Below, one piece after another: positions 31,432-54,026 of a DNA stretch of 64,000 bases. Where the stretch lies: assembly GCA_005790605.1 (NCBI GenBank), contig SXUI01000040.1, positions 16,941-80,940 on the forward strand. The letters run 5' to 3'. The position numbers were made by a program, and so were the translations under genes. The DNA comes from Planctomycetia bacterium. Lineage in GTDB: Bacteria > Planctomycetota > Phycisphaerae > Phycisphaerales > SM1A02. Below the pieces are notes generated by a model. That model did no database searches. It was not told the origin of the DNA and was given only the letters and a program-made list of their open reading frames with translations. How positions within the stretch are numbered: the stretch's first letter is position 1; each line of letters starts with the position of its first letter.

Positions 31432-31433
31432 CC

Positions 31434-33638: not shown

Positions 33639-33666
33639 ACGCGGTCGGTACCTCTCGGAGATCCGC

Positions 33667-34014: not shown

Positions 34015-34024
34015 CAAGGCGCTC

Positions 34025-34636: not shown

Positions 34637-36526
34637 ATGGCAACAAGCGGTGCATCCGGAATCCGCGCTGGCCGCGCATATGTCGAGCTCGGAGCCAACG
34701 ACACGCTCTCTGCTGCGCTCGACCACGCGAAGAAGCAGCTCACAGAGTTCGGCGACGCAGCACGCGCCGTCGGCGGTGGCATCCAGACCGCGGGCCTTGC
34801 CATCATGGCTGCAGGCACGGCGATCGTCGGATCACTCGCGGCTGCTGGACTCACCTTCGCCAAAGTGGGCAGCGAACTCCATGATCTCTCGCAAAGATCT
34901 GGCGTCTCGGTTGAAGCGCTCAGCGAGTTGCGCTTTGTCTTTGGTCAAACCGGCGTAGAGGCGGCTGATCTTGAAACAGCAATCAAGAAGTTGCAGAAGG
35001 CCGTGGTCGAAGCTGCGAAGGGATCGAAGGGCGCGAACGAACTCATTACTCGACTCGGCCTCTCTGTGGCCGACCTCGCGGCAATGACGCCCGAAGCGAT
35101 GCTCTCAGCATTCGCTGCTGCTCTCGCTGCAGTCTCAAATCCATCCGAGCGCGCAGCGCTTGCCATGGAGCTCTTCGGCAAATCCGGCACGAAGCTTCTT
35201 CCAGTACTTGCGCAAGGCGCTGAAGGCCTCGCTCGCATGCGCGCGTATGCGCGTGATCTCGGGCTCACCGTTTCAACCGACGCAGCACAAGCCGCGGACG
35301 CGCTCGATGATGCGATCGGCGAACTCACTTCCACACTGCGCATTCTCGTTTTCGAAGTTGGCGCTGCGCTCGCTCCGATCTTTCTCGAGATTGTGACTGT
35401 CCTGCGCGGCGTCGCAAGCGCAACGATCGAGTGGGTGCGCAGCAACCGCGATGCCATCGTGACGGCGCTCGCCGTGGGAGCAGCGCTTGTTGGCATTGGC
35501 GCTGTACTCGCGAGTATCGGCGGCGGACTCATCGCGCTTGGTGCAACGATCACTGGCACAGCAACGCTGCTTGGATTTCTCTCGACTGCGTGGAGTCTTG
35601 TCACCGCGACCGCTACTGCAGCATGGACCGCGATGACTGGCCCAGTCGCGCTCACGCTCGCCGCTGTGCTCGCCATTGGAACGGCGCTCATGTATGTCAC
35701 TGGCGCGCTCGGAGCAGTGGCCGACTACTTCAGCCAGGTTTTCACGGCGCTTGCGAACGAATTGACGGCCACATGGGGCGGCGTACGCGACGCGCTTGCT
35801 GCGGGCGACCTCGCGCTCGCTGGTGAGATCGCACTCCAAGGTCTCAAGGTCGTGTGGATTCGGATCCTCAACGAAATCAAGAGTATTTGGCACACCTGGG
35901 TCTACGACCTCGCGGGCGCGTTTACGGTCATTGAGATCACCGCGCGCGAGATCTTCGAAGCGATCGTCGACTCGATCGTGAGCGGCGTCATCGCCATCGT
36001 GCAGGCGCTCGCGGAAGTGACCGGGATTGGCGACGAAGCTGCGCGTCGACTCCAGGAGGATTACAACCGTCAAGCTGCCACCGACAACGCCGCGCGCGAA
36101 CAGGAGTTGATGGATCGGATCGCTGCACTCGAGCACGAGCGATCGTCTGTCACGAGCGCCAACCAAGCAGAGCTCGACGCAGCGCGAGCCGCGCTTGACC
36201 GCCTGCGCAAAGAAGCCGCCGACGCACGGCGCGCGGTCGACGCTCGACGCGCGAATCCGCCTCTGATTGAGCCGCCTGAGTCTGAACCGATCGAACTGAC
36301 GATCAACGAGCCAAAGATCGAAGCGATCAAAGCCGCCAGCGCACAGGTCGAGCGCGTCGAGCAGTCGTTTCGCACCGCAGGCACATTCAACTTCGCGGCA
36401 GCAGCTGGACTCCTTGGCCCGTCGGAACAGGTGCAGCAGAAGATCGCAAACGCCACGCAGGCGACCGCAAGGAACACCCGCAGCATCCTCGACGCGATCA
36501 AAGGCGGCGGCCTTCTGTGGAGTTGA
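34637..36526 (+). CDS. tail tape measure protein
   Basis: N-terminal TMP-like Ala-rich region (LSELRFVFGQTGVEAADLETAIKKLQKAV). Central TM-like stretch. C-terminal coiled coil. RBS GGAGG. Confidence 0.75.
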   Translation: MATSGASGIRAGRAYVELGANDTLSAALDHAKKQLTEFGDAARAVGGGIQTAGLAIMAAGTAIVGSLAAAGLTFAKVGSELHDLSQRSGVSVEALSELRFVFGQTGVEAADLETAIKKLQKAVVEAAKGSKGANELITRLGLSVADLAAMTPEAMLSAFAAALAAVSNPSERAALAMELFGKSGTKLLPVLAQGAEGLARMRAYARDLGLTVSTDAAQAADALDDAIGELTSTLRILVFEVGAALAPIFLEIVTVLRGVASATIEWVRSNRDAIVTALAVGAALVGIGAVLASIGGGLIALGATITGTATLLGFLSTAWSLVTATATAAWTAMTGPVALTLAAVLAIGTALMYVTGALGAVADYFSQVFTALANELTATWGGVRDALAAGDLALAGEIALQGLKVVWIRILNEIKSIWHTWVYDLAGAFTVIEITAREIFEAIVDSIVSGVIAIVQALAEVTGIGDEAARRLQEDYNRQAATDNAAREQELMDRIAALEHERSSVTSANQAELDAARAALDRLRKEAADARRAVDARRANPPLIEPPESEPIELTINEPKIEAIKAASAQVERVEQSFRTAGTFNFAAAAGLLGPSEQVQQKIANATQATARNTRSILDAIKGGGLLWS

Positions 36527-36546
36527 AGCTCGTTTGGAGTTGACGC

Positions 36547-37365
36547 ATGACAACGACGGTCCACCAACTGATTGAAGGCACCGAGGTCACGACTGGCGCG
36601 AGCCCGTCGGTCACACTCAAGTACTTCGTCGATGGAGCGGTCAGTGAAAACTTGGCGCTCGATGCCGTACTGGCAGTCTGCCCCGCGACCTATAACGGCA
36701 TGCCGAGGCAATCGCGCTCAGCGGAGCCGATCAGCGACACAAAATATCTCGTCACTGCGCGCTACTCGCCGCAGGAGTCCAACGACCAAGGCAATGCAGG
36801 AAGCGCGCCGCCGGAGAGTTCGTATGAGTTTTCGACGGGCGGAGGAAGCGAGATGATGTTTGTCTCGCTCTCGACCAAACAACGCGTCGCGCTTGCTGGC
36901 GGCCCACAGGCGCCCGACTTCCACAGCGGTGTCAACGTGACGAACGACGGACCGCAGGGCGTCGAGCGCACTGTGCCGATCTTCAACTTCAGCGAGACGC
37001 ACTTCAAGAGTGCAGCGGAAATCACCAGCTCGTCTATCTCTACGCTCTTTGCACTCACGGGCTGTGTGAACAACTCCGCCTTCCGCGGATTCGCTTCGGG
37101 TGAAGTGCTCTTTCTTGGTGCACGCGGCTCTAAGCGCGGCGTCACTGGTGATTGGGAGATCACATATTCGTTCGCCGCAAGTCCCAATGTCACCAACGGC
37201 ACCATCGGCGGCTTCACTGGCATCAACAAGGATGGCTGGGATTACTTGTGGTTTCTCTTCGAGGACAAAGAGGATCCCAACGCCGAAAAGATTGTGCGTC
37301 GGCCACGGGCTGCGTATATCGAGCAGATCTACAAGCGCGGCAGTTTCGCGGGCTTGGGGATATAG
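36547..37365 (+). CDS. distal tail / tail tip protein (hypothetical)
   Basis: 272 aa immediately after the tape measure gene. Confidence 0.45.
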   Translation: MTTTVHQLIEGTEVTTGASPSVTLKYFVDGAVSENLALDAVLAVCPATYNGMPRQSRSAEPISDTKYLVTARYSPQESNDQGNAGSAPPESSYEFSTGGGSEMMFVSLSTKQRVALAGGPQAPDFHSGVNVTNDGPQGVERTVPIFNFSETHFKSAAEITSSSISTLFALTGCVNNSAFRGFASGEVLFLGARGSKRGVTGDWEITYSFAASPNVTNGTIGGFTGINKDGWDYLWFLFEDKEDPNAEKIVRRPRAAYIEQIYKRGSFAGLGI

Positions 37366-37368
37366 GTC

Positions 37369-38457
37369 ATGTCGGACTACCTCAAGAATGTCAGACGCGG
37401 CGAGCCGATCGACCTCTCTGCAGCTGCGTGGAACAAACTGATGGATATGGCCCGCCGCGACGGCGTGCGTGGCGCATCCGGAATGGCTGACCCACTCTTT
37501 GCGAAGCGCGATCGCGATGTGGTGCTCGTCAAAAACATGTCAGGTATCGAGTACCCACGATGGGGTGTACTCGGTCTTGGCGCACCCGTGTATGTGCCGC
37601 AGCACAACCCGCCGAGCGGAAAACAAGAGTTGCCGCAAGACTTCGCGGAGAACTTAGTACTCCGCGGCGAGATGCCCGTCGCGGGAGTGCACGAGGGACT
37701 CTTCGGTGTGCTGCTTCAACCGCTCAAAGATGGTGACATTGGCGCCGCGATTGTGTCGGGGACTTTCGGTTGCGTGATTGTTGTGCAAGACGGGCGCCAT
37801 CGCTTCGCTGATGTGTATCCGTCGCGCGCGGCGGGTGGTTCGGGCGAGAGCTTCTCAAGTGGCGCAGCACTCATCGATGGCGATGTCTTGCTGCGCAGTT
37901 GCGATCACGGCGGCGCGGAGATCCTTTGGAAGGAAGCGGGACTGGGCGAGCGATATGCGGCGATCAGGCTCGCGCAACAACCTCGAACGAGATGGCGAGC
38001 AATCCTCGGAGCAGCGCACCTTCTCCCCGGCGAACGCTTTCGTTGGCGCTACGAATGGCACGAAGCGCGCATCGACGCCGATCCCGCCAGTCCGACCAGC
38101 GGCTGCTACATGCCACTCGAAGTCGGGCTCTCAAGCAAGGACACACTCGGCAGCGAAGTCGACGCGCGCATGGCGATCAACCGCTACGAGTCGCATCTGT
38201 CGCAGATTCATTCGCAACCTGACAATGGCATCGAAGGCTTCGCCATTGCTGGCGCGTGCCTCGTCCGGGGCGTACCCGAGTCGTGCCCGCCCGAGAGAGC
38301 GGCGGTGCCGATCCTCCAACCAATCCTTTCTGGTGTCTGCGTCGAGCTCGTCGCCGAGCCCGATTCCCACGGGAACACGCGATACACGTTCGAGGCGCTC
38401 AACGGTGTGATCTTCACCGAGATGACCGTGCCGCCGCTGCGAGGGACCTTTCAATGA
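37369..38457 (+). CDS. tail tip / baseplate-like protein (hypothetical)
   Basis: 362 aa. Position only. Confidence 0.4.
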   Translation: MSDYLKNVRRGEPIDLSAAAWNKLMDMARRDGVRGASGMADPLFAKRDRDVVLVKNMSGIEYPRWGVLGLGAPVYVPQHNPPSGKQELPQDFAENLVLRGEMPVAGVHEGLFGVLLQPLKDGDIGAAIVSGTFGCVIVVQDGRHRFADVYPSRAAGGSGESFSSGAALIDGDVLLRSCDHGGAEILWKEAGLGERYAAIRLAQQPRTRWRAILGAAHLLPGERFRWRYEWHEARIDADPASPTSGCYMPLEVGLSSKDTLGSEVDARMAINRYESHLSQIHSQPDNGIEGFAIAGACLVRGVPESCPPERAAVPILQPILSGVCVELVAEPDSHGNTRYTFEALNGVIFTEMTVPPLRGTFQ

Positions 38458-38891
38458 ACCCGCGTGTGAACGACCCAAACCAAGTGGTCGAAGCGATCCT
38501 CGCGATCGAAGCGATGCGACCACCGCCCCGCTTCATTGTGCACCTTCGTTGCCATGACAACGCGCTCGTGTCGGCACTCCGAAGAAGGCGCTGCGATGGT
38601 CTCGGCGTCGACACAGAAAGCGAAGCAGCCGACATGCGCGGAGCAATTGGAATCAACGCAAATGAGCGCGTGCCTGTCGCTGACGGCGTGGCCGACTGCG
38701 TCATCTTTCTTGGCGCAACCACTGCAGAGCTCGATCACGCGTGGGCTGAGATCCGCCGCATCGCCCGGCCGCGCGCGCACTTCCTCTTGTCGTTCACTCG
38801 CGCACCCACGGCAAGTTGGTGCAGCGCACGACTGACAGGAGCAAGCGTCTCACGGCGTCATCCCTTTGTGTGGGGCACGTTCCATGCGTGA
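38454..38891 (+). CDS. small SAM-methyltransferase-like protein
   Basis: 'DCVIFLGATTAELDHAWAEIRRIARPRAHFLL' resembles the C-terminal part of class I MTases. ATG overlaps the upstream stop. Confidence 0.3.
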   Translation: MNPRVNDPNQVVEAILAIEAMRPPPRFIVHLRCHDNALVSALRRRRCDGLGVDTESEAADMRGAIGINANERVPVADGVADCVIFLGATTAELDHAWAEIRRIARPRAHFLLSFTRAPTASWCSARLTGASVSRRHPFVWGTFHA

Positions 38892-39771
38892 GCACGCTGG
38901 CGACATCGCTGCGCTCCAATCGGGGCTTCGGCAACGCAGGCCAAGTTTGAGCGGCGTGCGATTGTGGACTGCCGACTTCGACCATGTGTCGCTCGCGAAC
39001 TTCTACCGCGGCAAGCACGCGTTTCTTGTGCTCAGTGGGCCAAGTCTCTTGACGCACGACCTGTCTGAGCTTTCGCGCCGCGGCATCGTGACGATGGGCG
39101 TCAACAACTCGTGGACAGTAGTACGCCCAACGCTGTGGACCTGTGTGGATACGCCCGATCGCTTCGTCGACATCGGATGGAAAGACCCGGGGATTACGAA
39201 GATCGTGCCTATTGAGCATTGGAACTCGCGGCTGCGTGTCGCGCTTGGTGAGGGCCGCTTTCGCGCGAGTCAATTTCGCGTGGCCGACATGCCAAGCGTG
39301 TTGATGTATCGGCGCAGCGACACGTTCGATCACCGCTCGTTTCTGAGAGGCGACACGATCTCGTGGGGCTGCGCGACAAGCGCGACGGACTCATTGGGCA
39401 TCAAGGGCAAGCGCAGCGTCATGCTCGCCGCGCTCGGGCTTCTCTACTACCTCGGCTTTCGCCAGGTCTATCTCGTGGGCGCTGACTTTCGCATGGCGAC
39501 CAACCAGAGATATGCCTTCGACGAACAGCGTTCGGCTCAGGCGATCCGCCACAACAATGTGCTCTACGAGAGTCTTGATAGGCGCTTCCACGCGCTGAAG
39601 CCAGAGTTCGCGAAGGCGGGTTTCTCTGTCCACAACTGCTGCGAACACAGCGGGCTCACTGCGTTTCCGAAGATCAGATTTGCCAAGGCCGTCGAACGCG
39701 CGAGCGCGGAGTGCTCGAAACCTGTGCCGACGGATGGTTGGTACGAACCAATACGGGAGAACAAACGATGA
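38884..39771 (+). CDS. DUF115 / MptE-like (Maf-type) domain protein
   Basis: 'HAFLVLSGPSL', 'GIVTMGVNN', 'LLYYLGFRQVYLVGADF' blocks resemble DUF115. Confidence 0.35.
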   Translation: MREHAGDIAALQSGLRQRRPSLSGVRLWTADFDHVSLANFYRGKHAFLVLSGPSLLTHDLSELSRRGIVTMGVNNSWTVVRPTLWTCVDTPDRFVDIGWKDPGITKIVPIEHWNSRLRVALGEGRFRASQFRVADMPSVLMYRRSDTFDHRSFLRGDTISWGCATSATDSLGIKGKRSVMLAALGLLYYLGFRQVYLVGADFRMATNQRYAFDEQRSAQAIRHNNVLYESLDRRFHALKPEFAKAGFSVHNCCEHSGLTAFPKIRFAKAVERASAECSKPVPTDGWYEPIRENKR

Positions 39772-40775
39772 GTATGACTTCAAGTGGCTCGTCAAATCCG
39801 ATGCGATACTTTCTCTATATTCCGGTGTGGGCCACGACGCAGCAGCCTGAGGGCAGCGACTCGGAGAGCAACTCGAGTGGATCATTGAGTGAGTCGAACA
39901 GCAGCGGATCGAACAGTGGCTCGGGTAGTGGATCATCGAGCGGCACTGGTGGCTCGTTGGGAGGATCAAGTGGCGGATCCAGTAGTGGATCAACCGATGG
40001 TTCGAGCGGAGGATCCACTGGCGGTTCTGGCGGTTCTGGTGGTTCTGGTGGTGGTTCCGGCGGCGGTGGCGGCGGATCGGGCGGTGGCGGCGGCTCCGGC
40101 AATTGCCTGCTCTACGGTTCCCTCGTCACGCTCTCTGACGGCAGCACGATTGCCATCGAAGAGCTGCGCCCTGGCATGGAGGTGGCGTCGCTTGCAGTGC
40201 CCGGGCTCGACACCGATGTCGACTACCGCGCGCAGTATGCGTGGCTCTCTTCGCACGGTCTTGATGGCTGCGCGCCGCGGAGCGTGCGCCTCGATCATGT
40301 GCGCAAGGGCGAGCACGACGGACACTTTGTCATCAACGATCGTATTCGCGCAACATTCGAGCACCCGTTTCTGATCCGCCGCGGCGACCAGTGGGGCTTC
40401 GCGTCCGCGCACCTCCTTGAGATCGGCGATCGGCTGGTCGTTCCCGCGCACGGTGGCTCACTCGGCGAAGAGCGCATCGAGTCGATTGAGGCAATCGCCG
40501 GCGTCGTGCGCACGGTCGCGATTCATGTGCCGGGCACGAACATATTCATCGGCGACGGCGCGTGGATGCACAATGATCTCTCCCTCAGTGCGATGTCGAG
40601 TTCGAGCGGCTCGATGTCGTCGGGATCGGGCATAGGTTTGTCGAGCGGATCAAGCAGCGGCGGCAAGAACAGTGGCTCGAGCTTCTCTGGCAGTGCTTCC
40701 ACGGGAGGCACCGCGCTCTCGGGAAGCGGACCGCAGTTTTCTTCGACATTCACTCCGACAACTGGCAAAGGTTGA
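39768..40775 (+). CDS. Ser/Gly-rich protein with internal Hint (bacterial intein-like) domain
   Basis: Low-complexity S/G N- and C-terminal regions flank a block that starts with Cys (SGN-CLLYGSLVTLSDGSTIAIEELRPGMEV) and ends 'VAIHVPGTNIFIGDGAWMHN', a Hint-domain signature. Confidence 0.55.
   Translation: MSMTSSGSSNPMRYFLYIPVWATTQQPEGSDSESNSSGSLSESNSSGSNSGSGSGSSSGTGGSLGGSSGGSSSGSTDGSSGGSTGGSGGSGGSGGGSGGGGGGSGGGGGSGNCLLYGSLVTLSDGSTIAIEELRPGMEVASLAVPGLDTDVDYRAQYAWLSSHGLDGCAPRSVRLDHVRKGEHDGHFVINDRIRATFEHPFLIRRGDQWGFASAHLLEIGDRLVVPAHGGSLGEERIESIEAIAGVVRTVAIHVPGTNIFIGDGAWMHNDLSLSAMSSSSGSMSSGSGIGLSSGSSSGGKNSGSSFSGSASTGGTALSGSGPQFSSTFTPTTGKG
39990..40100 (+). repeat. coding tandem 9-bp (Gly-Gly-Ser) repeats
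   Basis: ggcggttct ggcggttct ggtggttct ggtggtggt tcc ggcggcggt..., a simple-sequence tract prone to slippage. Confidence 0.6.
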
Positions 40776-40776
40776 A

Positions 40777-41286
40777 ATGCGACGATGGCACATTGTGGCC
40801 GACCTCTGCAATCGCCACGGCCTTCGCCGCGGCGTCGAACTCGGCGTGCGCGAGGGACGCTTCACGAAGCACATCCTTGTTCATGTGCCCGACAGCCAAC
40901 TGATCGGCGTCGATGTGTGGCGCGCGCTCCCCACGCGTGACGCGCCCGGCGCAGAGACATACGCAGAGTGGCCCATGGCTCGCTACCGCGCTCAAGCGAT
41001 CGCGCTCGTCGATCAGTTCCCGAATCGTTGCCGCATGCTCGAGATGACCACTGACGAGGCTGCCAAAGCGCTGCCCGACGCAAGCGTCGACTTTGTATTC
41101 ATCGACGCAGACCACACTCAGGATGCCGTCGCGCGCGACATCGCTGCGTGGACACCGAAGGTGCGACCAGGCGGACTGATTGCGGGCCACGACATCCGCT
41201 GGCCATCCGTGCGCCGCGCTGTGGCAGCAAGCGGGCCATTTGAGGAAGTGGGCCACGACGAAGTGTGGTTGCGGTGGATCTCATGA
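40777..41286 (+). CDS. class I SAM-dependent methyltransferase (Methyltransf_24 / TylF-like O-MTase family)
   Basis: 'LGVREGRFTKHIL', 'DASVDFVFIDADHTQDAVARDIAAWTPKVRPGGLIAGHD'. Confidence 0.65.
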   Translation: MRRWHIVADLCNRHGLRRGVELGVREGRFTKHILVHVPDSQLIGVDVWRALPTRDAPGAETYAEWPMARYRAQAIALVDQFPNRCRMLEMTTDEAAKALPDASVDFVFIDADHTQDAVARDIAAWTPKVRPGGLIAGHDIRWPSVRRAVAASGPFEEVGHDEVWLRWIS

Positions 41287-41930
41287 CGCCGACAATCGCG
41301 TGTGTACTGCGCTCGGGCGGCCGCTACAGCGCTGACTGGGTCGCGCGACTCAAGCGCGGCATCGAACGCCACACGACGGTGCCCCACCGCTTCGTGTGTC
41401 TTACTGATGTCGATGTGCCCGATGTCGAAACGATCGCACTCGTCGAAAGTTGGCCAGGATGGTGGTCGAAGATCGAGCTCTTCCGGCCGGGGCTACTCAC
41501 CAGACAAACGCTCTACCTTGATCTCGATGTCGTGATCGTCGGCGACATCGCACCGCTCCTTCGAGCATGCGACGCCTTTACGATGGTGCACGAGCGCGGC
41601 ACGAGTAATTACTTCAATTCGTCAGTCATGGCGTGGAACGGCGACATGAGTTTCCTGCACAATGCGTTTCGCGCAGACGCGCTTCAACACATGCATCGCT
41701 ATCGCAGTCATCCGCGCATCGGCGATCAGGCGTTCATCAGCGAGTTCCTTGTGAGCGAAGGTAAGAAGCCACGAACCTTTCGCGGCGTGCTCGGCTACGA
41801 CGCGATTGTGTCGTACAAGCGCGATCGATGCGAGAGTCGTCCCCCGCCGAGCGCATGCGTCGCGAACTTCCATGGCCGACCAAAGCCGTGCGATTTCGAG
41901 ACGGGCTGGGTGGCGGAAGCGTGGAAGTGA
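41283..41930 (+). CDS. putative glycosyltransferase-like protein
   Basis: DxD-like 'YLDLDVVIVGD' with nucleotide-sugar transferase-like context. Weak. Confidence 0.3.
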   Translation: MTPTIACVLRSGGRYSADWVARLKRGIERHTTVPHRFVCLTDVDVPDVETIALVESWPGWWSKIELFRPGLLTRQTLYLDLDVVIVGDIAPLLRACDAFTMVHERGTSNYFNSSVMAWNGDMSFLHNAFRADALQHMHRYRSHPRIGDQAFISEFLVSEGKKPRTFRGVLGYDAIVSYKRDRCESRPPPSACVANFHGRPKPCDFETGWVAEAWK

Positions 41931-42205
41931 GAACCCACACAAGCACAGGCGAGCCCACGAAGCGGAGTGCCTAACCAACAAGGCTTCGATGTGGGTCACG
42001 CCCGTGCAGACATCATCTGCAAAGCCCCGACATCAACAGCAAAGTGTGGCACGACAACGAGTTACGCCACTCTTCCACGCGCAGGCAACTCGTCAGTCAG
42101 CGTCGACTTCGGTCGACTCCCGCTGCTGTGGTTGTCAAAGCATAGCAAAGATGCGAGCATGCCCACTCGAATCCACACCACCGCGACCGATTCGGGGAGC
42201 AATAA

Positions 42206-43843
42206 ATGGCTGAAAGTTCAGCGTATGGCGGACGTGGACGCCCATGGCATCCAGAGTTCGTCGAGTACATGGAGTTCATCGTGCAGCACCCCGTGTACAG
42301 CGGAATGCCGGATGCATACTACGAACCTGGGCGCATTCAGTGGGAAGCCCCATCCAATCGCAGCAGCGGGCAGTTCAAGGACACGCATGGTCGACGTGCA
42401 AAGTGGTGGGCCGCGAAGGCCGCGGAAATCGGCGTGTCAACAGCTTCTGATCAGTGGATCTCACGCGTCGCCAAAACCATCCACCCTACGAAACTGAAAC
42501 CGTGCAAGATCTGCGGACGCCAGCTTCAGCTTCGATATGCCTATCCCCAGGAAAGGCTACTGCAGAGACTTCGAGATTTGCGCGGGGTTCCAACCGACTT
42601 CCAATTCGATCCGCTCGAGCCAATCTCTGACCTGGTACTTCGATTGGATCGACACTGCGGGTCCACCGTGATTTCACAACTTCCATCCGTGTTCAGCAGC
42701 GGACTCAAGGCCCTCAACACCAAGCCGATTCCTCGCTCGATGCCTGAATGGATCGACTGGCTCGAGAAGCATTACATCCCGTCAGAGCCACGTGGCGTTC
42801 TCAGTCCAGGCGCCATGTCAAATGCGCCAGACCGCTTCGACGGCTTTCACTGCGACAACTTGTGCTGCAGAAAGCACGCGGATAAAGGTCGAAGCAAGGA
42901 GAATTTGCAGACGTACGTGACAGATCGCCGGGTGTTTGAGTACTGGTCTGCCGGGGACTGGGTGGCAGCCGACCGTCTCATGGGCCTCGTGCGTACGACA
43001 TTGTCTTCGGCGACCTGCCGAAACGGCCATCAAGGACCATGCGCGGCTGACCACATTGGCCCGATTTCGCTAGGCTTTTGTCATCGGCCACGGTTTCAGT
43101 TGTTGTGCACCCCCTGCAACAGTGCAAAGAGCAACCGAATGTATCTCTCCGATGTTCTGCTTTTGAAGCAACACGAAGCGACAGGAGAGACAGTCGTTTC
43201 GTGGCATTCGCGTGCGGTGTGGGACCTTTGCAAAGATCGTGTGGGTACCGACGAGCACGCGAGGCGACTGTCAAAGTTGATGCGCGACAACCGGCACTCT
43301 CTGATGGCTGCACTCAAAGAGGTGTACGACGCCAACGGCCTGACCTATCTTGCGTCCCTCCTCGAACTCGACCGCGCAAATTTTGACGTGACATTCACCG
43401 AACTCAAGGCAACCGATCATCTCACGGCATATGCAAAGTTGGTGCATTCGGCACGCGATACCAAGTATGCGGTCGAACAGAAGGTCCGCCGCCTTCGGAT
43501 CGCGTTCGACGAACTATCCGCGTACTTTGAGAAGCGGAATAGAAACGCATTTGTCGCCTGCCCAACCACCACGCATCTGAAACGAGCGGTCGATAGTCTT
43601 TCAAAGGCTCGATCTGGATTCTCGATGCAGGAGGCCTTGCTTGCGAAGGCGAATGCCGCAGCGAAGGATGCCCAAGGAAGCCTATTCAGGGCCTCTCTCG
43701 ATTCGACCCGAGCGGTTCCCGCTTCGGCCTTTGCCGCAACACATGCAGCACTCGAAGCGCATATGAACCAGACGGGGAGAACCCTCGCCGAACTCTGGGA
43801 ATCTGATCGCTACTGCCGCGAGATAGCTGAGGATGTCGACTAG
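42206..43843 (+). CDS. candidate Type IIS restriction endonuclease with HNH (His-Me finger) motif
   Basis: 'CAADHIGPISLGFCHRPRFQLLCTPCNSAKSN' fits the HNH pattern. Convergent with two DNA MTases. 545 aa, a size similar to BsaI/Eco31I-type REases. Confidence 0.4.
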   Translation: MAESSAYGGRGRPWHPEFVEYMEFIVQHPVYSGMPDAYYEPGRIQWEAPSNRSSGQFKDTHGRRAKWWAAKAAEIGVSTASDQWISRVAKTIHPTKLKPCKICGRQLQLRYAYPQERLLQRLRDLRGVPTDFQFDPLEPISDLVLRLDRHCGSTVISQLPSVFSSGLKALNTKPIPRSMPEWIDWLEKHYIPSEPRGVLSPGAMSNAPDRFDGFHCDNLCCRKHADKGRSKENLQTYVTDRRVFEYWSAGDWVAADRLMGLVRTTLSSATCRNGHQGPCAADHIGPISLGFCHRPRFQLLCTPCNSAKSNRMYLSDVLLLKQHEATGETVVSWHSRAVWDLCKDRVGTDEHARRLSKLMRDNRHSLMAALKEVYDANGLTYLASLLELDRANFDVTFTELKATDHLTAYAKLVHSARDTKYAVEQKVRRLRIAFDELSAYFEKRNRNAFVACPTTTHLKRAVDSLSKARSGFSMQEALLAKANAAAKDAQGSLFRASLDSTRAVPASAFAATHAALEAHMNQTGRTLAELWESDRYCREIAEDVD

Positions 43844-43845
43844 GT

Positions 43846-45090
43846 TTATGAGGAGGCCAGCTTGCCGCGCCGCCGAACGCTACCCGTATTGATTGGATCC
43901 GGCAGCTCGGTCAGGGAATCAACATCCGATCCTCGAGTGCTCAAAGCCGCGATGTAGGACTGTGCGCTAGTGCACCCGCGCATCAGCGATTGATAATCCG
44001 ATTTTGGAGCGGTTACATATTCGAGAGTCTCCCCGTTCTCACCTGCAACGAGCGCTGGTAAATCGCCGAGGGCCTCAAGGACGGAGATCGGTGTGCCGCC
44101 AAAGAGGCCGTTCGTCAGTGGTCCGTGAGGCAATTGAAACGCCGCACGCTTCCTGAATCCAACAATGATGATTCGCTTCCGACGCTGCGGCACGCCATAC
44201 TCCTCGGCGGATACGCGCCAGACCACTATCTCCCTAGCGACGGAACGAAGCGCCTGACTGACGCGCTCGAAGACCCGACCTGATTCCATGTTGATCAGGC
44301 CCGTCACATTCTCGAACAAGAAGGCGTCGGGATCGACCGCCTCGACGATCCGACAGTAGTCATTGAAGAGCAGATTGCGTTCATCTGCCTCGCTACGACG
44401 ATTCCCCGCGGTCGAGAACCCCTGGCATGGAGGTCCTCCAACGAGAACCTTCGGCACTCGCGAATCGCCGGAGGCTGCCAACTCGACGATCCTGTTTCGG
44501 ATGTCCTCTTCTCGAACATCGCCAACCACAACATTTGGGTGGATGTTCCGCACGAATGTCTTCATGGCGTGTTCGTCGATATCTGATGCCACCAAGCTCT
44601 TCCAACCAGCCCAGTGGAATCCGAGTGAGAGCCCACCTGCACCCGCGAACAAGTCGACGAGATTCCCGGGGCGCCCGAACGAGGTGGCCAACCAATACGC
44701 AAGGAGCGGCGGTACCGCGTTCCCGATCTGCTTTGATACAGCGGTGAGCGGTCCGGTGAAAACGAAGCTGTCAGGGAAACTCTGCAGGCGGGCCGCTTCG
44801 CGGTAGGAGAGCGTGCGAAGTTGCGCCCACTCGTAATGCAAGTGGCAACCGTTCCCGGGTCGACCAACGTAGGTAGAGATCGTGTACGAGGGCTGCGACG
44901 GATGCAGCCTCCCGTAATAGGTTGAACGACTTCCCTCGCCTCGCGCGTAACTCTCGCGGATCTGCTTCAGTCGCTGAGAAGGCACGGACTCGGGAATGTC
45001 CTTCCAGTTACCGCCTGGCGGAACAGCCCGCGCAAACTGCAGATCGAGTGCGCTAAGTTTCGGCGCAATATGATTCCGAATCATCACCAC
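43846..45090 (-). CDS. DNA (cytosine-5)-methyltransferase, circularly permuted motif order
   Basis: Motif I 'DLFAGAGGLSLGF', IV 'GGPPCQGFSTAG', VI 'FLFENV'. Motif IX/X-like 'LSYREAARLQSFPDSFVFTG' lies N-terminal to motif I. Confidence 0.85.
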   Translation of the reverse strand: MVMIRNHIAPKLSALDLQFARAVPPGGNWKDIPESVPSQRLKQIRESYARGEGSRSTYYGRLHPSQPSYTISTYVGRPGNGCHLHYEWAQLRTLSYREAARLQSFPDSFVFTGPLTAVSKQIGNAVPPLLAYWLATSFGRPGNLVDLFAGAGGLSLGFHWAGWKSLVASDIDEHAMKTFVRNIHPNVVVGDVREEDIRNRIVELAASGDSRVPKVLVGGPPCQGFSTAGNRRSEADERNLLFNDYCRIVEAVDPDAFLFENVTGLINMESGRVFERVSQALRSVAREIVVWRVSAEEYGVPQRRKRIIIVGFRKRAAFQLPHGPLTNGLFGGTPISVLEALGDLPALVAGENGETLEYVTAPKSDYQSLMRGCTSAQSYIAALSTRGSDVDSLTELPDPINTGSVRRRGKLASS

Positions 45091-46685
45091 AATTCCTTGT
45101 AAAGAAGGGCGTCTCGCTCTTCCGCTCTCAGTTTCGGGAAAGCCGGCAGCACGCTGGCAAAGGCGTCGCGATCGAGTCCGTACGCGCGCGCCACGGCCAC
45201 CTCAAGCCCTGGAAGTTCGATAGAGGAGTTCAACCGCCTATCGAGCATCAGCAACAGCCGTTCGCGCTCGGGCGACTCGAGCAGAAGAGTTAGAGGTGCG
45301 GCGCACCGTCGCAGCACCCCCTGCGAAACATGCGTTGTCGCGAGCTTGGTTCGAACCTGAAGCTCAAAAACCAAGCTGTTCATGACGGCGAGCAAAGCCG
45401 AAAGGGCTTTCGCGTCACCAGTTCGAAGAAACGCGATTCCAAGTGAGTTGCCCGTCACATTCCTTGGCGGCACGAAGGCGACGTGCATTCGCCTGCGCTG
45501 GGTGGGACGCGAGACATCGCGCCATGCAATCCTTCGCTCCAACACAGTTGCGGGAATCTGACGCTTAGTCGGATCGATGTAGTCGATGGATTCTCGCTTG
45601 ACCTGGAATGGGAACACATGCCGCCCCTTCAAAAAGGGGATGCCACCAACGACAGATCCAAATGACTCAGCCAAGCGTGTCTCGTCGAGCTCTCTTCCGA
45701 GCCGCAAGCCGATGCGTAGATCCTCTTCTAGCATTGAGAGCGATGCGTGTTGGCCGCAAATCAACCGAACGATCTCCTCCGCATCTCCTGCTACATTGAG
45801 TGCCAAGGGATCACTCAAACTCGAACGGAGGATATGTTCGCGCGACTCAACCTGATTGCGCGCAGCATCGAAGCGCGTGAGCTGAAAGCAACGCGTTGGT
45901 CCGCCTTCCCGCGCTGCCAAGGTTACGAACGCCTGGTCGACCGAGTCGAAAAACTTTGCTTCCGCGGGGTAGTACTCGATTCCGCTCACATCTAGCCTCT
46001 GGAACAAGCTTGCTCTGAAGGGCGATGAAGCTTGGTCGGCGAAGATCGCTGCCGGCAGAACTATGTACATCGCAGCGCTTGCCCGAAGCAGCCGCGCAGA
46101 CGCGATGGCGCCCGCGCGCGCCAGATTTACCCCGTACCCCGTGACCGCCTTGCCTGATGCACTCTTGCAGCCTGGGAACTCACGATCGAGCCACTCGGCA
46201 TATCCCCGCAGTGACTGCCTGTACTCGCCGGGTAACTCCACAGCGTCGCGCGAGTCCGGCTTGAGGAGTTCCCAAGGAGGATTGGTCAGCAGCAAGTCAA
46301 CACTTGCCGTCTCGAGGGGAACTCTTCGGAATGTATCTCCGCTCAACGCTACGAGTCGAACTCTCGCCGAAAGCCCAAGATCCTGAAGGAGGGCACCGAT
46401 TGCGCTGCGGGCGGTGTGTACCGCTTCGGCGTCGTAGTCAAAAACTCGGACCTCCGACAGACGTTCAATCGCGTTCTGATCGATCGCAGCTCGTCGCAGC
46501 CAAGCGACTACCAGCCTCCCGTCGCCACAAAATGGATCGCAGACGCACTGGGGCTGAAATCCCGACGCGACTGCTCTTGCGGCAAGCGCCCCCGCTATCT
46601 CGAGAGGCGTGTAAAAGCGACCGGTCAGCCGCGCCTCAATGTCAACTCGACTCGACGAGCGCTTCGCGATCTCAACATGCAGCAT
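45084..46685 (-). CDS. N6-adenine DNA methyltransferase (gamma class, NPPW)
   Basis: Motif I 'VCDPFCGDGRL' precedes motif IV 'LLTNPPWELL'. Confidence 0.8.
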   Translation of the reverse strand: MLHVEIAKRSSSRVDIEARLTGRFYTPLEIAGALAARAVASGFQPQCVCDPFCGDGRLVVAWLRRAAIDQNAIERLSEVRVFDYDAEAVHTARSAIGALLQDLGLSARVRLVALSGDTFRRVPLETASVDLLLTNPPWELLKPDSRDAVELPGEYRQSLRGYAEWLDREFPGCKSASGKAVTGYGVNLARAGAIASARLLRASAAMYIVLPAAIFADQASSPFRASLFQRLDVSGIEYYPAEAKFFDSVDQAFVTLAAREGGPTRCFQLTRFDAARNQVESREHILRSSLSDPLALNVAGDAEEIVRLICGQHASLSMLEEDLRIGLRLGRELDETRLAESFGSVVGGIPFLKGRHVFPFQVKRESIDYIDPTKRQIPATVLERRIAWRDVSRPTQRRRMHVAFVPPRNVTGNSLGIAFLRTGDAKALSALLAVMNSLVFELQVRTKLATTHVSQGVLRRCAAPLTLLLESPERERLLLMLDRRLNSSIELPGLEVAVARAYGLDRDAFASVLPAFPKLRAEERDALLYKELW

Positions 46686-47412
46686 ACTTCACCCCTCGAA
46701 CCAACCGAGACACCATTTCGTCTGGCACAAGAGGCGCATTTTGACATTGAACGACCGCTCGCCGAATCACGGCTCGAACCACCCCGACGGAGCGAAGGTT
46801 CGCGTTCGAGCCAAATCGAATTGCCGGCCCTTGATTCGCTACAGCATTCTCGTTTCTGATCACGCGTGCGAGTGACTCCCCGTCCAATGAGAATGCAAGC
46901 CAGTCACTCGAAGTGGGAGCCGCTCCCTCATCGATCATGAGCCTGTCACCGGGCTGCAGACAAAGGTCAGACTCGCACGACGCCGAAAGGCACCAAAGTA
47001 CGGCTATTCCGCCGCCTGGTAGCAGTTCCGCAAACCACTTCGCACCGGCTTCCGACCGGTCATGAGGGGATTGAGCAACGCCGACCTGGCGCTCGCAGAG
47101 ATCCGGGCACGCACTCGACAGCACCTGCAGGCCGCGGAACCGCCGAGCAGCGAGTCGCACGTAGCCCTTCCGTTCGAGTGCTTTGAGGTGGTCACGAACC
47201 GTGGCGGTCGATCGGAAGCCCAACTCGGCCTGCAACTCGCGGTAGGTCGGTGGAAGATCGCCGCGCAGCGAGCAAACCCGCAGCACTCGAAGCACGCGAA
47301 GCTGGGCTGGGGTAAGCGGGCTCAAGGTGGCGCTACCGTACCACTCATTTGAGTGCCCCGCAAGCGTTGCCTCCGTCGTGGCCGCTCGAACATTGTCCGC
47401 ACATGCTGACAT
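46672..47412 (-). CDS. LexA/CI-like transcriptional regulator (wHTH + S24-peptidase-like C-terminal domain, catalytic residues unclear)
   Basis: 'LTPAQLRVLRVLRVCSLRGDLPPTYRELQAELGFRSTATVRDHLKALERKGYV' is a LexA-type wHTH. The C-terminus aligns with LexA's beta domain but Ser/Lys are not evident. Start chosen at an internal Met (ORF runs to 47652). Overlaps the m6A MTase start by 14 nt. Confidence 0.55.
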   Translation of the reverse strand: MSACADNVRAATTEATLAGHSNEWYGSATLSPLTPAQLRVLRVLRVCSLRGDLPPTYRELQAELGFRSTATVRDHLKALERKGYVRLAARRFRGLQVLSSACPDLCERQVGVAQSPHDRSEAGAKWFAELLPGGGIAVLWCLSASCESDLCLQPGDRLMIDEGAAPTSSDWLAFSLDGESLARVIRNENAVANQGPAIRFGSNANLRSVGVVRAVIRRAVVQCQNAPLVPDEMVSRLVRGVKYAAC

Positions 47413-47434
47413 ACTGCGGCCGACGAGCAAGCAC

Positions 47435-48163
47435 ACTATGCCGGACTGCGACTCACCTCCCGAACACGACTCAAGCGACATCACCGCGAACTCGGCAGGA
47501 TCTCCTTGGACTCCGGTACGGTTCCAACTGTTGGAGTGGTTTCGCCAAGATGCGCCGTCGCTCGCTGGAGCGTACGAAGCAACTGTCTTTCTCGTTTCCA
47601 CTCCATCAGTTCCGGCGCGGGTCCATTTAGTCTGCCACCTTGTGCGCGACATCTACGGCAAGCTTCCAGAGATCCTTGACGGGGAGTTTCGTTTCCAGAG
47701 TGCCGGTGCTGTCTACCCACCATTCATCGATACGATCGCCAACCATTGGAGATCACCCGATGGCGCCCTGTTAACCAACGCCGCAGCTTCCGAAACCGCG
47801 CCGAGCGCGTCCGACCGCGTTAACGTTCCGAGAGCGGCTGCTCGCGCGGTAGACGACCTCCTCGCTCGACGAGCGGTGCTCAAAGATCAGCCCCGCAGCA
47901 CGGAGGTCCTTGCTCGAGCGCTATTCAGACGCTTCGCCGAATCTGGGCTTCAACCACCTGCTCGCCTGGCCGCCACGTTCGAGGAGGAGAGGAGATGGTT
48001 CACCGACCGTGCGCACCTGGTACTTGAGCGCGCCAAAGTACCTGCTGAGGAAGGGCTGCTCGATCATTTCGCCTCATTCGAGGGTGCGCTCCATTCGCTC
48101 GTCGGCGAGTACTTCACAGGGAAGGAGGAGCTGGATGCAATCCTCGCACAAGCCAACGCCTGA
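47435..48163 (+). CDS. hypothetical protein (first gene of divergent operon)
   Basis: Start at the internal Met of ORF 47327-48163. No recognisable domain. Confidence 0.35.
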   Translation, partial: TMPDCDSPPEHDSSDITANSAGSPWTPVRFQLLEWFRQDAPSLAGAYEATVFLVSTPSVPARVHLVCHLVRDIYGKLPEILDGEFRFQSAGAVYPPFIDTIANHWRSPDGALLTNAAASETAPSASDRVNVPRAAARAVDDLLARRAVLKDQPRSTEVLARALFRRFAESGLQPPARLAATFEEERRWFTDRAHLVLERAKVPAEEGLLDHFASFEGALHSLVGEYFTGKEELDAILAQANA

Positions 48164-50993
48164 GCAGGTTATGGCAGCGGTCGCGCGGATCACCGCGCCT
48201 CATCTCGAGCGCTACTTTTTCGAGAGGCTCGAAAACCCCGCATGGATCGAGCCCCTGCACGCGCACGGCTTCTTCAAGGATCCGCCCGCTCCCGAGCGAA
48301 TGGACGGCGGAGTGCGCTGCAGACTCTGGCCTCAGTCGGCGTATCTCGCACGCATGGCGCCGAGTGCGCCCGAGGCGGTCGCGACGATTCTCGGCACGCT
48401 CGAGACGAGCAACTGGATGGTTGTGCGCGACATGCTAGTGGCCGCGAGCCAACTGCCCTCGCCGCTCGTTCGATCACTCGTGCCTAACCTCGGCGACGCC
48501 GTTCGCTCGCATCGACTTTGGCATTCACTCGACACCCTCGGCGCAATCGTCGCAAACTTGGCGCACGACAATCACTCTGAGGTCGCTATCGACTTGATGA
48601 TCCGCGGGTTCGGAGGTGTTGTTGAGCGAGACGAGCAGACCCTTCGACAGGCGTCATATCCATTCTTCGAGGCGCTGACTGAGTCCGTGGTGCCCGCGCT
48701 GGCGCGATCCGCTCCGCTCCCGCTACTTGAGGTGTTGCTGCGATGGGTTCGCTCCGCAGCTTCCAAGGAGCACCCCTCGCGGGCTGATGGCGATGAACTG
48801 TCATACATCTGGCGACCAGCGATCGAGGAACACGAACAAAATCGGGACCACGATTTCGCAGGTCGGCTGCTGGGAGTTGTGCGCGATGTGTCGGAGCGCG
48901 CCATTCGCGATGCTGGCCTCGGCGTCAGCGCTCTTCTCGACGTACTCCGACCCGATGGTTCGGTCATCGGTCAACGCCTTGCCCTGCACCTCATCGGAGA
49001 GTTTAGCGAGAGGGAGCATGGCTTGACAGAATCAATGATGCTCAACCACAGGCTGTTTGCAGACCATCGTGTCAAGCACGAGTACGCACGGCTGATGGCG
49101 CGAAGATTCTCTCTGCTCAATCCCGACCAGCAGTCTCAGTGGTTCTCATGGGTCGTCGCTGGGCCACCTGATGATTCCGCCGCGGACCCCGCGAGCCGCT
49201 CCCAGTATGTTGCCTATTGGAAGTTCTGCCGGCTGCACTGGATCTGGGAGCACCTGACAGGTGCGCACCGCGCCTTCTACGAGAAGATGTTGACGGAACA
49301 CGGCGTTCCGGAGTTGGCGGATCTCAATATTCACTTCGGCGGGGTTCAGTCAGTCGTTGAGCTTTCCCCGTTCACAGTCGAGGAGCTTGCGGCAAGAGGC
49401 TTTGCCCCGGCGATCGAACACGCCCGAAGCTGGCGTCCAGAACCATGGTACCGTCGGTTTGATGCGCCTTGCATTGAAGGGTTCGCCAACACATTTCAGC
49501 AGTATGTCGCAACCGCGCCCGACCGCTTCTCTCGCGGTGCAACAATTCTCATCGGCCTCTCCGCGCCGTTCATTCGAGCGTTCCTACGCGCCATGATGGA
49601 CGCGATCAAGCGCGGCACGCGAGTTGATATCGTGAGCATCCTGACACTCTGCCACTGGGTGCTCTCGCGCCCGGTCGCGGAACGAACCTCGCCCAACGGC
49701 GAGTGCGAGCCCTTGCTAGATAAGGACTGGCAATGGTGTCGAGAGACAATCGGAGAACTGGCGGCGGCTGTGTGTGGAGCGCGCACCGATTCCCGACCGA
49801 CCTACGGGGTCGAACTGCGAGAATCTCTCTGGACCTCGATAGAACCGCTCCTTTGCGACAAGGCTGACTCGCACATCGTCCAACAGCAGGCCTGCATCGA
49901 TCCACGTGTGTCTGATTGGACGCTTCTTTCGGTCAATTCGCCGCGCGGGAAGGTGATGGCGGCCATTTGGGCGTACGCGGACTGGCTGGCGTGGCATCTC
50001 GATCCTGCACGCAAGGACCACACCAAGTTTGCTGGGACACTCGATCAGATGCCTGAAGTGCGGTCTGCGCTAGAGCGGCAGCTCACCGATGAATCAGCCG
50101 GGTTCACGGGACGTGCCGGATTCGGGATCCGGCTGGGTCTACTCTGGTGGATCGACACAGACTGGTTGGCCAGACATGCGTCAGTGATTTTCGATCTGCG
50201 CGCCTTCGAGATTGAACCGCAGCGGGCGTTCGGTTGGGCTGCTTGGAATACGTTCTTGTTCTCGAATCGGCCACACGTCGAGCTGTACAAGGTGCTTCGG
50301 GACCAGTTCGGTTACGCCGTTGATCAGGCCGCTCGCTGCGACCAAGTTGGTGACTCGAGGGAAGGGCCGTACTTCCATCTTGGCCAGCACTTGATGACGC
50401 TCTACGGTCGCGGAGACTTCGGATCTGACGCGGAAACGGCATGGGAAGCCGACCAAGGAGTCATCCGACGCCTCGTCACCCAGGCTCAATGGGCAATCCG
50501 CAGCTACGCGATCGAGTTTGTCGGAATCAGCCTGAATGATTCCGGCGGCAAGGTTCCCGACGAGGTGAGAGAGAGATTTGTCGGGCTCTGGGAGCGATAT
50601 TGGGCACAGGCCGGTTCCACTGATGCGCGCGCCGATCCGAACAGCGGCGTCTTTGGTTGGTGGTTCTGCTCGGGCGTGTTCGATCCGGCTTGGTCGATTC
50701 AACAGCTTGAGAGCTTCGTCGCACGCTGTCCAAAGGCCGAGCCCGATCATCTGATCGTGGAGCGCCTGGCAGCGACGGCGGAAGCCGATCCGCTGCGCGC
50801 AGCCAAAATCGTGGACATGCTTGTCGCAGGAGATAACGAAGGCTGGCGCGTTCGAGGATGGGCCGCCGACGCCAAGAAGGTGCTGGCGATTGCCCTCAAG
50901 GCAGGAGGTGAGGCGCGTGGGGCCGCCAAAGCCGCAATCGACAGACTTGGAAAGCACGGCCACAACGACTTCGGAGCCTTGCTGAAGGCTTGA
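48135..50993 (+). CDS. large hypothetical protein (953 aa, Trp/Arg-rich, predicted alpha-helical)
   Basis: Strong RBS (GAAGGAGGAG) 5 nt before the ATG. Overlaps the upstream gene by 29 nt. No recognisable enzymatic motif. Confidence 0.5.
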   Translation: MQSSHKPTPEQVMAAVARITAPHLERYFFERLENPAWIEPLHAHGFFKDPPAPERMDGGVRCRLWPQSAYLARMAPSAPEAVATILGTLETSNWMVVRDMLVAASQLPSPLVRSLVPNLGDAVRSHRLWHSLDTLGAIVANLAHDNHSEVAIDLMIRGFGGVVERDEQTLRQASYPFFEALTESVVPALARSAPLPLLEVLLRWVRSAASKEHPSRADGDELSYIWRPAIEEHEQNRDHDFAGRLLGVVRDVSERAIRDAGLGVSALLDVLRPDGSVIGQRLALHLIGEFSEREHGLTESMMLNHRLFADHRVKHEYARLMARRFSLLNPDQQSQWFSWVVAGPPDDSAADPASRSQYVAYWKFCRLHWIWEHLTGAHRAFYEKMLTEHGVPELADLNIHFGGVQSVVELSPFTVEELAARGFAPAIEHARSWRPEPWYRRFDAPCIEGFANTFQQYVATAPDRFSRGATILIGLSAPFIRAFLRAMMDAIKRGTRVDIVSILTLCHWVLSRPVAERTSPNGECEPLLDKDWQWCRETIGELAAAVCGARTDSRPTYGVELRESLWTSIEPLLCDKADSHIVQQQACIDPRVSDWTLLSVNSPRGKVMAAIWAYADWLAWHLDPARKDHTKFAGTLDQMPEVRSALERQLTDESAGFTGRAGFGIRLGLLWWIDTDWLARHASVIFDLRAFEIEPQRAFGWAAWNTFLFSNRPHVELYKVLRDQFGYAVDQAARCDQVGDSREGPYFHLGQHLMTLYGRGDFGSDAETAWEADQGVIRRLVTQAQWAIRSYAIEFVGISLNDSGGKVPDEVRERFVGLWERYWAQAGSTDARADPNSGVFGWWFCSGVFDPAWSIQQLESFVARCPKAEPDHLIVERLAATAEADPLRAAKIVDMLVAGDNEGWRVRGWAADAKKVLAIALKAGGEARGAAKAAIDRLGKHGHNDFGALLKA

Positions 50994-52693: not shown

Positions 52694-52715
52694 TCAAGTC
52701 CAGTCGGGGGAGTTC
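52694..52715. repeat. attR-like direct repeat of the tRNA-Asn 3' end
   Basis: Exact copy of tRNA positions 7656-7677, with no surrounding tRNA structure. Confidence 0.7.
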
Positions 52716-53184: not shown

Positions 53185-54026
53185 AACGAGGGGGTTGGCT
53201 TGCCTGTCCCAATTCGCGTACCACTTATCTCCCCGCGATGGACCAAGAGCGTTAGCTTGTCCGTGCAGCCTCTCATTTCTCTCCTCCTGATCCTGCTCCG
53301 AATCTGCCGCGAGCAATTCGAGTCTCAACACTGGCTAGTGAATGGATGTGATAGTTTGTCGGTCCACACGATTGAGAGCCGACAATCGATCACACCTATG
53401 GCTGTGAAGACCGAAGCGGAACGACTGCTCGACGAGTCCACCGCAAGGGAATCGTTCAGAATCACGAACCCGCACGGCGGGCCAGTCGCCGCACCAACAC
53501 GAATCCGGTGAGCACAGGCGTCGTTAGTATCAACCCAACAATGGCGCAAACGAGCCATTTGGGTTGTTGCGGGGAAAGCAGATAGATCGACAAACCACCG
53601 ATCATCATGCTCCCATTGGCGCTCCCCAATACGCACAGCTTCACACGGGCGACCGAAGCCTTCAGACGCGTGGGTGTATCCGTGTGAGCCTGCATTTATC
53701 AGTTCTCGCTTTCTGCTAGCGCGCAGCGTTTCCGCTTCAGAGAGTACCAGAACGAAGTCGCACGGATTGCTCGATGCGAGCGGATGTGAATCTGGCGAAA
53801 ACACGGCTCGCACCGCGTCATCAACCTCCCGCTCAATCGCGCGACTCACGGATCGCGGCGTTCGTGCGGAGTTTCGGTGTCGAGATTGTGCGATCGAGTG
53901 GTGCTTGATTCCTTGATTCGTGGTGTCCGCGCGGAACGACACACGCGAAGCGAGGTGCTTCGTGGGAATCTGATTCGGGGAGCACGGAGAGAGTCTCCGC
54001 ATGTCGCTCGCGAAAGTTCACGCCGA

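Follow-up and report, generated by a model that had tools for sequence, protein, structure and literature searches.

A predicted three-gene Alw26I/Eco31I/Esp3I-family restriction-modification system as cargo of a temperate phage at tRNA-Asn of an uncultured Phycisphaerales bacterium

Restriction endonucleases of the Alw26I/Eco31I/Esp3I (BsaI) family are central to Golden Gate cloning, and the characterised enzymes of this family cut 1/5. Eco31I, from Escherichia coli RFL31, recognises GGTCTC(1/5) and has BsaI as an isoschizomer; to our knowledge, the site of every characterised family member is GTCTC, either alone or extended by a 5' G or C. In E. coli EC958, the methyltransferases (MTases) M1.EcoMI and M2.EcoMI are 100% identical to those of Eco31I, the restriction endonuclease (REase) is encoded on the opposite strand with mcrBC adjacent, and GAG(m6A)CC, in which m6A stands for N6-methyladenine, is methylated (PMC4659465). 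Complete Type II restriction-modification (RM) systems are rare in temperate phages (PMC4176335). The locus described here lies in a stretch of 64,000 nucleotides of a planctomycete genome (contig SXUI01000040.1 of assembly GCA_005790605.1, positions 16,941 to 80,940; Phycisphaerales, SM1A02), which was analysed as a whole, is referred to as the window, and is part of an 88.6-kb metagenome contig. Three adjacent genes, designated R, M2, and M1 (coordinates are those of the window), very probably form a complete Alw26I/Eco31I/Esp3I (BsaI/BsmBI) RM system, carried as accessory cargo by a 45-kb temperate phage at tRNA-Asn of an uncultured member of the Phycisphaerales.

42206-43843, + strand: R, Alw26I/Eco31I/Esp3I-family restriction endonuclease, 545 amino acids (open reading frame and family profiles)
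43846-45084, - strand: M2, circularly permuted C5-cytosine MTase, 412 amino acids from the ATG at 45084 (open reading frame, PF00145, and motifs)
45084-46685, - strand: M1, gamma-class N6-adenine MTase, 533 amino acids (open reading frame, TIGR02987, and motifs)

The restriction-modification genes and their prophage

The three open reading frames (ORFs) were confirmed in the ORF list at the coordinates reported by a first-pass annotation of this DNA, and gene strands and motifs agreed with its description of an endonuclease gene that is convergent with two adjacent MTase genes of different chemistry. The stop codons of R and M2 are 2 nt apart (43843 and 43846), and the stop codon of M1 overlaps the start codon of M2 by 1 nt (TGATG); the M2 ORF could also start at a GTG at 45090 and would then encode 414 amino acids. 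A ribosome-binding site (GGGGAG) is located approximately 7 nt 5' of the R ATG. None of the three genes is a chance ORF, as the family E-values of their products range from 1e-63 to 1e-174.

On its profile matches, the 545-amino-acid R protein is an endonuclease of the Alw26I/Eco31I/Esp3I family. It matched Pfam PF09665 (RE_Alw26IDE; E = 1.6e-174; 582.3 bits against a cut-off of 23.1) over profile positions 1-444 of 507, NCBIfam TIGR02986 (494.8 bits against a curated cut-off of 443.85) over all positions (1-425 of 425), and the PADLOC model REase_II (E = 1.4e-142). The HNH motif that had been called textbook in the first-pass annotation was retrieved as DHIGP (residues 282-286) and CTPCNSAK (residues 301-308), with DH (282-283) and CxxCN (301-305) as its conserved core, and a second CxxC occurs at residues 100-103. 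Alignment with 17 diverse homologues indicated that R keeps every conserved position, the invariant residues being D282, H283, C301, C304, N305, N310, C100, C103, C220, and C279. A sequence search of the PDB with R returned noise only (transaldolases, E > 0.3) and no solved relative, and the HNH fold is assigned from the motif and from the published classification, which places this endonuclease family in group 29 of the His-Me finger (HNH) superfamily (PMC5714182). The family is large, with more than 2,100 matches among the candidates scored, of which the closest relative of R outside its own phage lineage was approximately 59% identical.

The MTases were likewise assigned from profiles and motifs. 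M1 aligned end to end with TIGR02987 (met_A_Alw26; E = 2.4e-71; positions 3-517 of 523) and was called MTase_II by PADLOC (PDLC03365; E = 2.2e-90). Its motif I (DPFCGDG, residues 50-56) precedes motif IV (NPPW, residues 135-138) and a long C-terminal region follows, which is the order of the gamma class. M2 matched PF00145 in two stretches (E = 2.1e-63) and PADLOC MTase_II PDLC03381 end to end (E = 1.7e-120). Its motifs follow the order IX (residues 95-105), X (121-126), I (144-151), IV (PCQGFS, 219-224), VI (ENV, 258-260), and VIII (QRRKR, 300-304), and are thus circularly permuted. The same permutation is listed for M.BssHII, M.Alw26I, M2.Eco31I, M.Esp3I, and M2.BsaI (PMC5944983). These motif orders, together with the TIGR02987 and PF00145 matches, bear out the earlier description of a gamma-class N6-adenine and a C5-cytosine MTase. 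Both proteins also aligned with a single profile of 1036 positions that represents a fused MTase (PADLOC PDLC03237), M1 with positions 117-565 and M2 with positions 656-971. This mapping fits the architecture of M.Alw26I and M.Esp3I, which are reportedly (Bitinaite et al. 2002) single fused proteins that produce both m6A and 5-methylcytosine (m5C).

The E. coli counterpart of this locus (L100) contains, in order, McrB, McrC, and an REase annotated as 'Alw26I/Eco31I/Esp3I family', followed on the other strand by a dcm-type MTase and the adenine MTase of the family; its REase gene is present in 635 of 5,426 complete E. coli genomes. The R protein is 47% identical to the E. coli REase (over 542 amino acids; E = 9e-177), M2 is 50% identical to the m5C MTase (E = 9e-136), and M1 is 31% identical to the m6A MTase (over 549 amino acids; E = 5e-73). 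All three alignments were full-length and collinear, and the gene order is the same. An assignment to the Eco31I/BsaI/Esp3I family, as first proposed from the pairing of one endonuclease with an m6A and an m5C MTase, was hence upheld by R scoring above the Pfam and NCBIfam curated thresholds, by its typical MTase partners, and by the collinear E. coli locus.

The architecture was also conserved on a broader scale. Among 80 genome loci, taken from contigs of one genome per species and representing Cyanobacteria, Proteobacteria, Firmicutes, Acidobacteria, Bacteroidota, Actinobacteria, and several archaea, the m5C gene was located by tblastn directly 3' of R on the opposite strand in nearly all cases, with the m6A gene beyond it in most. 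Among viruses, the endonuclease family was found on 12 contigs of IMG/VR, seven of which contained the full trio, and in one of 50,697 GenBank phage records (36% identity). A second phage lineage, with an R protein that is 84% identical, carries R, the m5C gene, the m6A gene, and a LexA-like gene in the same order.

The carrier of the RM genes is delimited by two attachment (att) sites and encodes a recombinase:

7656-7677, + strand: attL, 22-nt core TCAAGTCCAGTCGGGGGAGTTC at the 3' end of tRNA-Asn (7601-7675), exact repeat
52694-52715, + strand: attR, second copy of the 22-nt core TCAAGTCCAGTCGGGGGAGTTC, exact repeat
8812-10371, + strand: large serine recombinase (prophage integrase; phrog_95, E = 1.8e-111; Resolvase, Recombinase, and Zn_ribbon_recom domains)

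Only these two copies of the repeat occur in the window, even when three mismatches are allowed, and none is expected in shuffled sequences. As the two copies bracket the region, the integrated element extends from approximately 7656 to 52715 (45 kb), with the RM genes in its right arm. The empty site, that is, tRNA-Asn joined to the right flank, gave no matches in JGI metagenomes, and the boundaries are therefore those given by the repeat. Between the att copies, genes were found for replication (helicase, primase, and a ParB-domain MTase), for packaging and virion structure (large terminase TerL, portal, protease/major capsid, head-tail joining protein, and tape measure), and for a sigma-factor-like protein, a PD-(D/E)XK nuclease, an AAA_24 ATPase, and a DUF669 protein. 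The RM genes are placed between accessory genes (glycosyltransferase- and methyltransferase-like) and attR. Outside the element, the flanks encode lactate utilisation, a sulfatase, and a GH18 chitinase, and the flanking LutB is 88% identical to a Phycisphaerales protein. That the RM genes are prophage cargo, as had been supposed, is thus supported by the exact att repeat at tRNA-Asn and by the replication, packaging, head, and tail genes around them.

No tyrosine integrase was detected in the element, the large serine recombinase being the only recombinase found. A 22-nt repeat that rebuilds the 3' end of a tRNA-Asn gene is a pattern more typical of tyrosine integrases, yet a serine recombinase is present.

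Site avoidance, predicted specificity, and rival explanations

The words GTCTC, GGTCTC, and CGTCTC were chosen for counting because they are the sites of the characterised family members. Over the whole window, the GTCTC count (88 against 192 in dinucleotide shuffles) was mostly compositional, the deficit shrinking to a ratio of 0.74 when a Markov model of maximal order was used, and it was dropped as evidence. An informative avoidance signal was obtained by splitting the prophage from its flanks at the att sites. In the prophage (45,016 bp), GGTCTC/GAGACC was observed twice against 12.9, 18.3, 24.3, and 27.3 expected under Markov models of order 4, 3, 2, and 1, respectively, which corresponded to depletion ranks of 1, 2, 4, and 7 among approximately 1,800-2,000 hexamers. 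The host flanks (18.9 kb) contained 11 sites against 10.0 expected, and the binomial probability that at most two of the 13 sites would fall in the prophage is 6.4e-5. Both orientations were depleted in the prophage (GGTCTC, 2 against 7.4-13.7 expected; GAGACC, 0 against 5.3-13.4), which argues against an artefact of codon usage. CGTCTC was not depleted (25 against 19.7 expected; ratio 1.27, both strands). The pentamer GTCTC occurred 55 times against 79.7 expected (rank 4 of 512); when pentamer counts were taken into account, only the G-prefixed hexamer was depleted (ratio 0.16), with AGTCTC and TGTCTC at or above expectation on the + strand. The two sites that remain in the prophage are the following:

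35840-35845, + strand: GGTCTC, in the tape-measure gene
38598-38603, + strand: GGTCTC

These counts point, indirectly and with moderate confidence, to GGTCTC as the specificity of the system, which would make it an isoschizomer of Eco31I and BsaI. We infer its Type IIS character, that is, cleavage outside the site, from family membership. As in other members of the family, the endonuclease would bind an asymmetric GTCTC-containing site and cut both strands a few bases to one side by means of one HNH active site. The asymmetry of such a site calls for a separate methylase for each strand; from the family, M1 would be expected to produce m6A in GAGACC and M2 to produce m5C at the inner cytosine of GGTCTC (PMC4659465). 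The two MTase genes may be translationally coupled through their 1-nt overlap and would be transcribed towards the R gene. A lysogen would use the system to restrict phage and plasmid DNA that enters it unmethylated, and the prophage may be stabilised by post-segregational killing; lysogen protection and prophage stabilisation have both been discussed for prophage RM systems (PMC4176335). With few sites of its own, the phage would be less likely to be cut by its own enzyme or by that of related lysogens.

Low GTCTC counts were also recorded in viral carriers of distant members of the endonuclease family. L097 and L098 (IMG/VR, one of them labelled GVMAG) contained no GTCTC against 9-11 expected in 17-21 kb, L096 contained one against 6.3, and L090 two against 7.6. 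This suggests pentamer-specific (Alw26I/BsmAI-like) avoidance in these four contigs.

Of the other explanations considered for the locus, the one that deserves most weight keeps the family and the architecture and changes the site. The system might recognise GTCTC, CGTCTC, or a new asymmetric site, with the avoidance of GGTCTC caused by another RM system in the host population; this is a possible reading, although clearly a less probable one than a GGTCTC specificity. It draws on the modest identity to the Eco31I-type proteins (47%, 50%, and 31% for R, M2, and M1), on the existence of family members with different 5' bases (PMC5944983), on the depletion of GTCTC itself in the prophage, and on the complete absence of this pentamer from L097 and L098. 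However, no hexamer is more depleted than GGTCTC under the strictest model, and beyond the pentamer effect the depletion is confined to the G-prefixed hexamer, CGTCTC being above expectation.

An anti-restriction role, in which R is inactive and the two methylases shield the phage DNA from Eco31I-type restriction by the host or by competitors, is improbable. Solitary MTases are far commoner in prophages than complete RM systems (PMC4176335), which speaks for it, but R is full length, scores above the curated thresholds, and keeps all the HNH and cysteine residues that are invariant in the 17 homologues. Moreover, the relative with an R protein of only 84% identity has retained an intact trio, which argues for purifying selection on R. 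That R could instead be a homing or packaging endonuclease of the phage, next to unrelated orphan MTases and outside any RM system, was considered because HNH endonucleases are common in phages and because the HNH motif had been the main clue of the first-pass annotation. The match to the restriction family spans approximately 445 residues, though, and not just the HNH module; almost all of the 80 genome loci have the three genes together and arranged alike; and both MTases match the family-specific partner models. These full-length family matches and the conserved synteny rule the homing explanation out for all practical purposes.

Several points weigh against a complete, active RM system with GGTCTC specificity. 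M1 scored 241.1 bits, below the NCBI naming cut-off of 353.5, and its identity of 31% to M1.Eco31I leaves room for a changed specificity. When an AlphaFold2 model of R (mean predicted local distance difference test score of 79.5, with lower values around the HNH motif) was compared with the PDB, neither a solved HNH relative nor any other match of note was retrieved. A scan of 41800-48300 retrieved no sigma-70 consensus promoter, a scan that is uninformative for a planctomycete host, and in the same scan terminators were fewer than in shuffled sequences. The site avoidance comes from a single 45-kb sequence of a locus known from a metagenome contig, and what it reflects could be RM systems in the host population that share this specificity, instead of the phage's own; the flanks are not depleted, so that a long coexistence of the host with the system is not visible. 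Furthermore, the G+C content of the RM genes (0.565-0.590; window 42001-46000) is lower than that of most of the prophage (approximately 0.61-0.64), which is consistent with horizontal acquisition of the RM module; it also suggests that this acquisition was relatively recent, an awkward fit with a genome-wide purging of sites.

Accessory and neighbouring genes

The remaining features of the locus and its surroundings are as follows:

8162-8815, + strand: DUF2924 gene, 5' of the integrase gene (domain match)
20640-22079, + strand: ParB-domain DNA methyltransferase of the phage replication module (phrog_498, E = 1.9e-132; PF02195 ParB_N; PF01555 N6_N4_Mtase)
41931-42205, + strand: non-coding stretch of 275 bp, presumed promoter or regulatory region of R (position 5' of R)
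46672-47436, - strand: LexA-type winged-helix DNA-binding protein, 222-326 amino acids (start uncertain, up to 47652; PF01726, E = 8e-17)
47438-48163 and 48135-50993, + strand: two-gene module encoding proteins of 241 and 952 amino acids, divergent from the LexA-type gene (ORFs)

The separate ParB-MTase that the first-pass annotation had placed at 20853 does exist, its ORF starting at 20640 and its family match at residue 72 (approximately 20853). It is an orphan MTase of a common phage class and stands outside the RM system. A protective role of the ParB-MTase, which the first-pass annotation had considered possible, is speculative, and as the RM system has both cognate MTases, nothing calls for such a role.

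The non-coding stretch 5' of R contains, at 42009-42044, an imperfect direct repeat of 16 nt (GACATCATCTGCAAAG and GACATCAACAGCAAAG) with a spacing of 20 nt, which is a candidate operator. On the other side of the locus, the LexA-type gene lies directly 5' of M1 and extends 14 nt into the start of M1. Only the N-terminal domain of its product matches LexA structures, and no S24 peptidase domain was retrieved by Pfam (E <= 1) or by a sequence search of the PDB. Its occurrence beside RM genes is limited to L003-L005, the closest relatives of the phage, and the 80 genome loci all lack it there. The protein is a possible regulator, either an RM controller or a prophage repressor, outside the conserved module of the family. 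A more far-reaching idea is that the RM module is wired into the lysogeny circuit through this protein, so that the methylases and the endonuclease would be expressed according to whether the prophage is in lysogeny or induced. This idea follows from the adjacency of the LexA-type gene to M1, which is its sole argument, and it is considered speculative and rather unlikely. If it were true, the RM system would serve as a lysogeny-addiction device, or it would be deployed at induction as a timed weapon against the DNA of the host or of competitors; no regulation of this kind is known for the Eco31I family.

Beyond the LexA-type gene, the 952-amino-acid protein of the two-gene module gave a PADLOC match (E = 1.3e-17) to Dsr1, a defence protein, in its C-terminal region outside SIR2. 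The 952-amino-acid protein belongs to an uncharacterised family of approximately 276 proteins, mostly from Planctomycetota, with no Pfam domain. The 241-amino-acid protein is fused to its 952-amino-acid partner in P0250 (47% identity). With this module, the cargo region may hold a second defence system.

On the side of the virion genes, an accessory run on the + strand (38866-41930) encodes a sialyltransferase/MptE-like protein, a Ser/Gly-rich low-complexity protein with a weak Hint-domain match, a Methyltransf_24 protein, and a glycosyltransferase (phrog_1962). These genes may modify the cell surface or the virion. An IMG/VR relative of the phage (L101) shares approximately 79% nucleotide identity over 29483-40931; its contig ends before the RM position and is therefore silent on whether relatives lack the RM cargo. 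Just outside attR, a 330-bp segment (53450-53778, in an ORF at 53325-54002 on the - strand) is 80% identical to an insertion in L101 (4797-5125). It may be what remains of another element, or a small mobile gene found in both phage and host.

Comparison with characterised systems

There is nothing new in the family, its methylation by two chemistries, its permuted m5C enzyme, or its gene order, and phage carriage of such an RM system is uncommon but not new. No long-standing question is opened or resolved by this locus. It likely encodes a new BsaI/Eco31I-type enzyme from a planctomycete phage, the practical value of which would be modest, and it provides a clean case of a temperate phage that carries a full Type II RM system, which surveys have found to be rare (PMC4176335). 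The contrast between prophage and flanks in the purge of one hexamer amounts to a testable prediction of specificity made from sequence only, and comparisons of this kind may be used to assign specificities to other RM systems of uncultured hosts.

The closest described system is Eco31I, or EcoMI of E. coli ST131 strain EC958, which likewise consists of three separate genes, with M1 (m6A) followed by a permuted M2 and convergent with R. Both endonucleases have the HNH motif, and the GGTCTC specificity of Eco31I is that predicted here from prophage avoidance. In contrast, the planctomycete-prophage proteins are only 31-50% identical to the E. coli ones, and R is shorter (545 against 579 amino acids). 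Also, the E. coli locus is chromosomal and lies beside mcrBC, whereas the present one is inside a planctomycete prophage and has a LexA-type DNA-binding gene coupled 5' of M1. Furthermore, GAGACC is over-represented in the prophage regions of EC958 (PMC4659465), whereas it is avoided in the present prophage.

Alw26I/BsmAI (GTCTC) and Esp3I/BsmBI (CGTCTC) belong to the same endonuclease family (PF09665/TIGR02986), and their systems pair m6A with permuted m5C chemistry, one for each strand of an asymmetric site that includes GTCTC (PMC5944983, PMC4659465), as is predicted for the present one. The planctomycete system differs from Esp3I/BsmBI in that CGTCTC is not avoided in the prophage that carries it. 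Another difference is that its MTases are encoded by two separate genes, M.Alw26I and M.Esp3I being reportedly fused. With other phage- and prophage-borne Type II RM systems, it shares the occurrence of a complete system in a temperate phage and the proposed roles in lysogen protection and lysogeny stabilisation (PMC4176335). It differs from them by its endonuclease family, which is scarce among phages, as indicated by the single GenBank record among 50,697 and the 12 IMG/VR contigs. Compared with all of these systems, the features particular to the locus are its planctomycete phage host, the marked purge of GGTCTC, and the LexA-type gene in the methylase operon.

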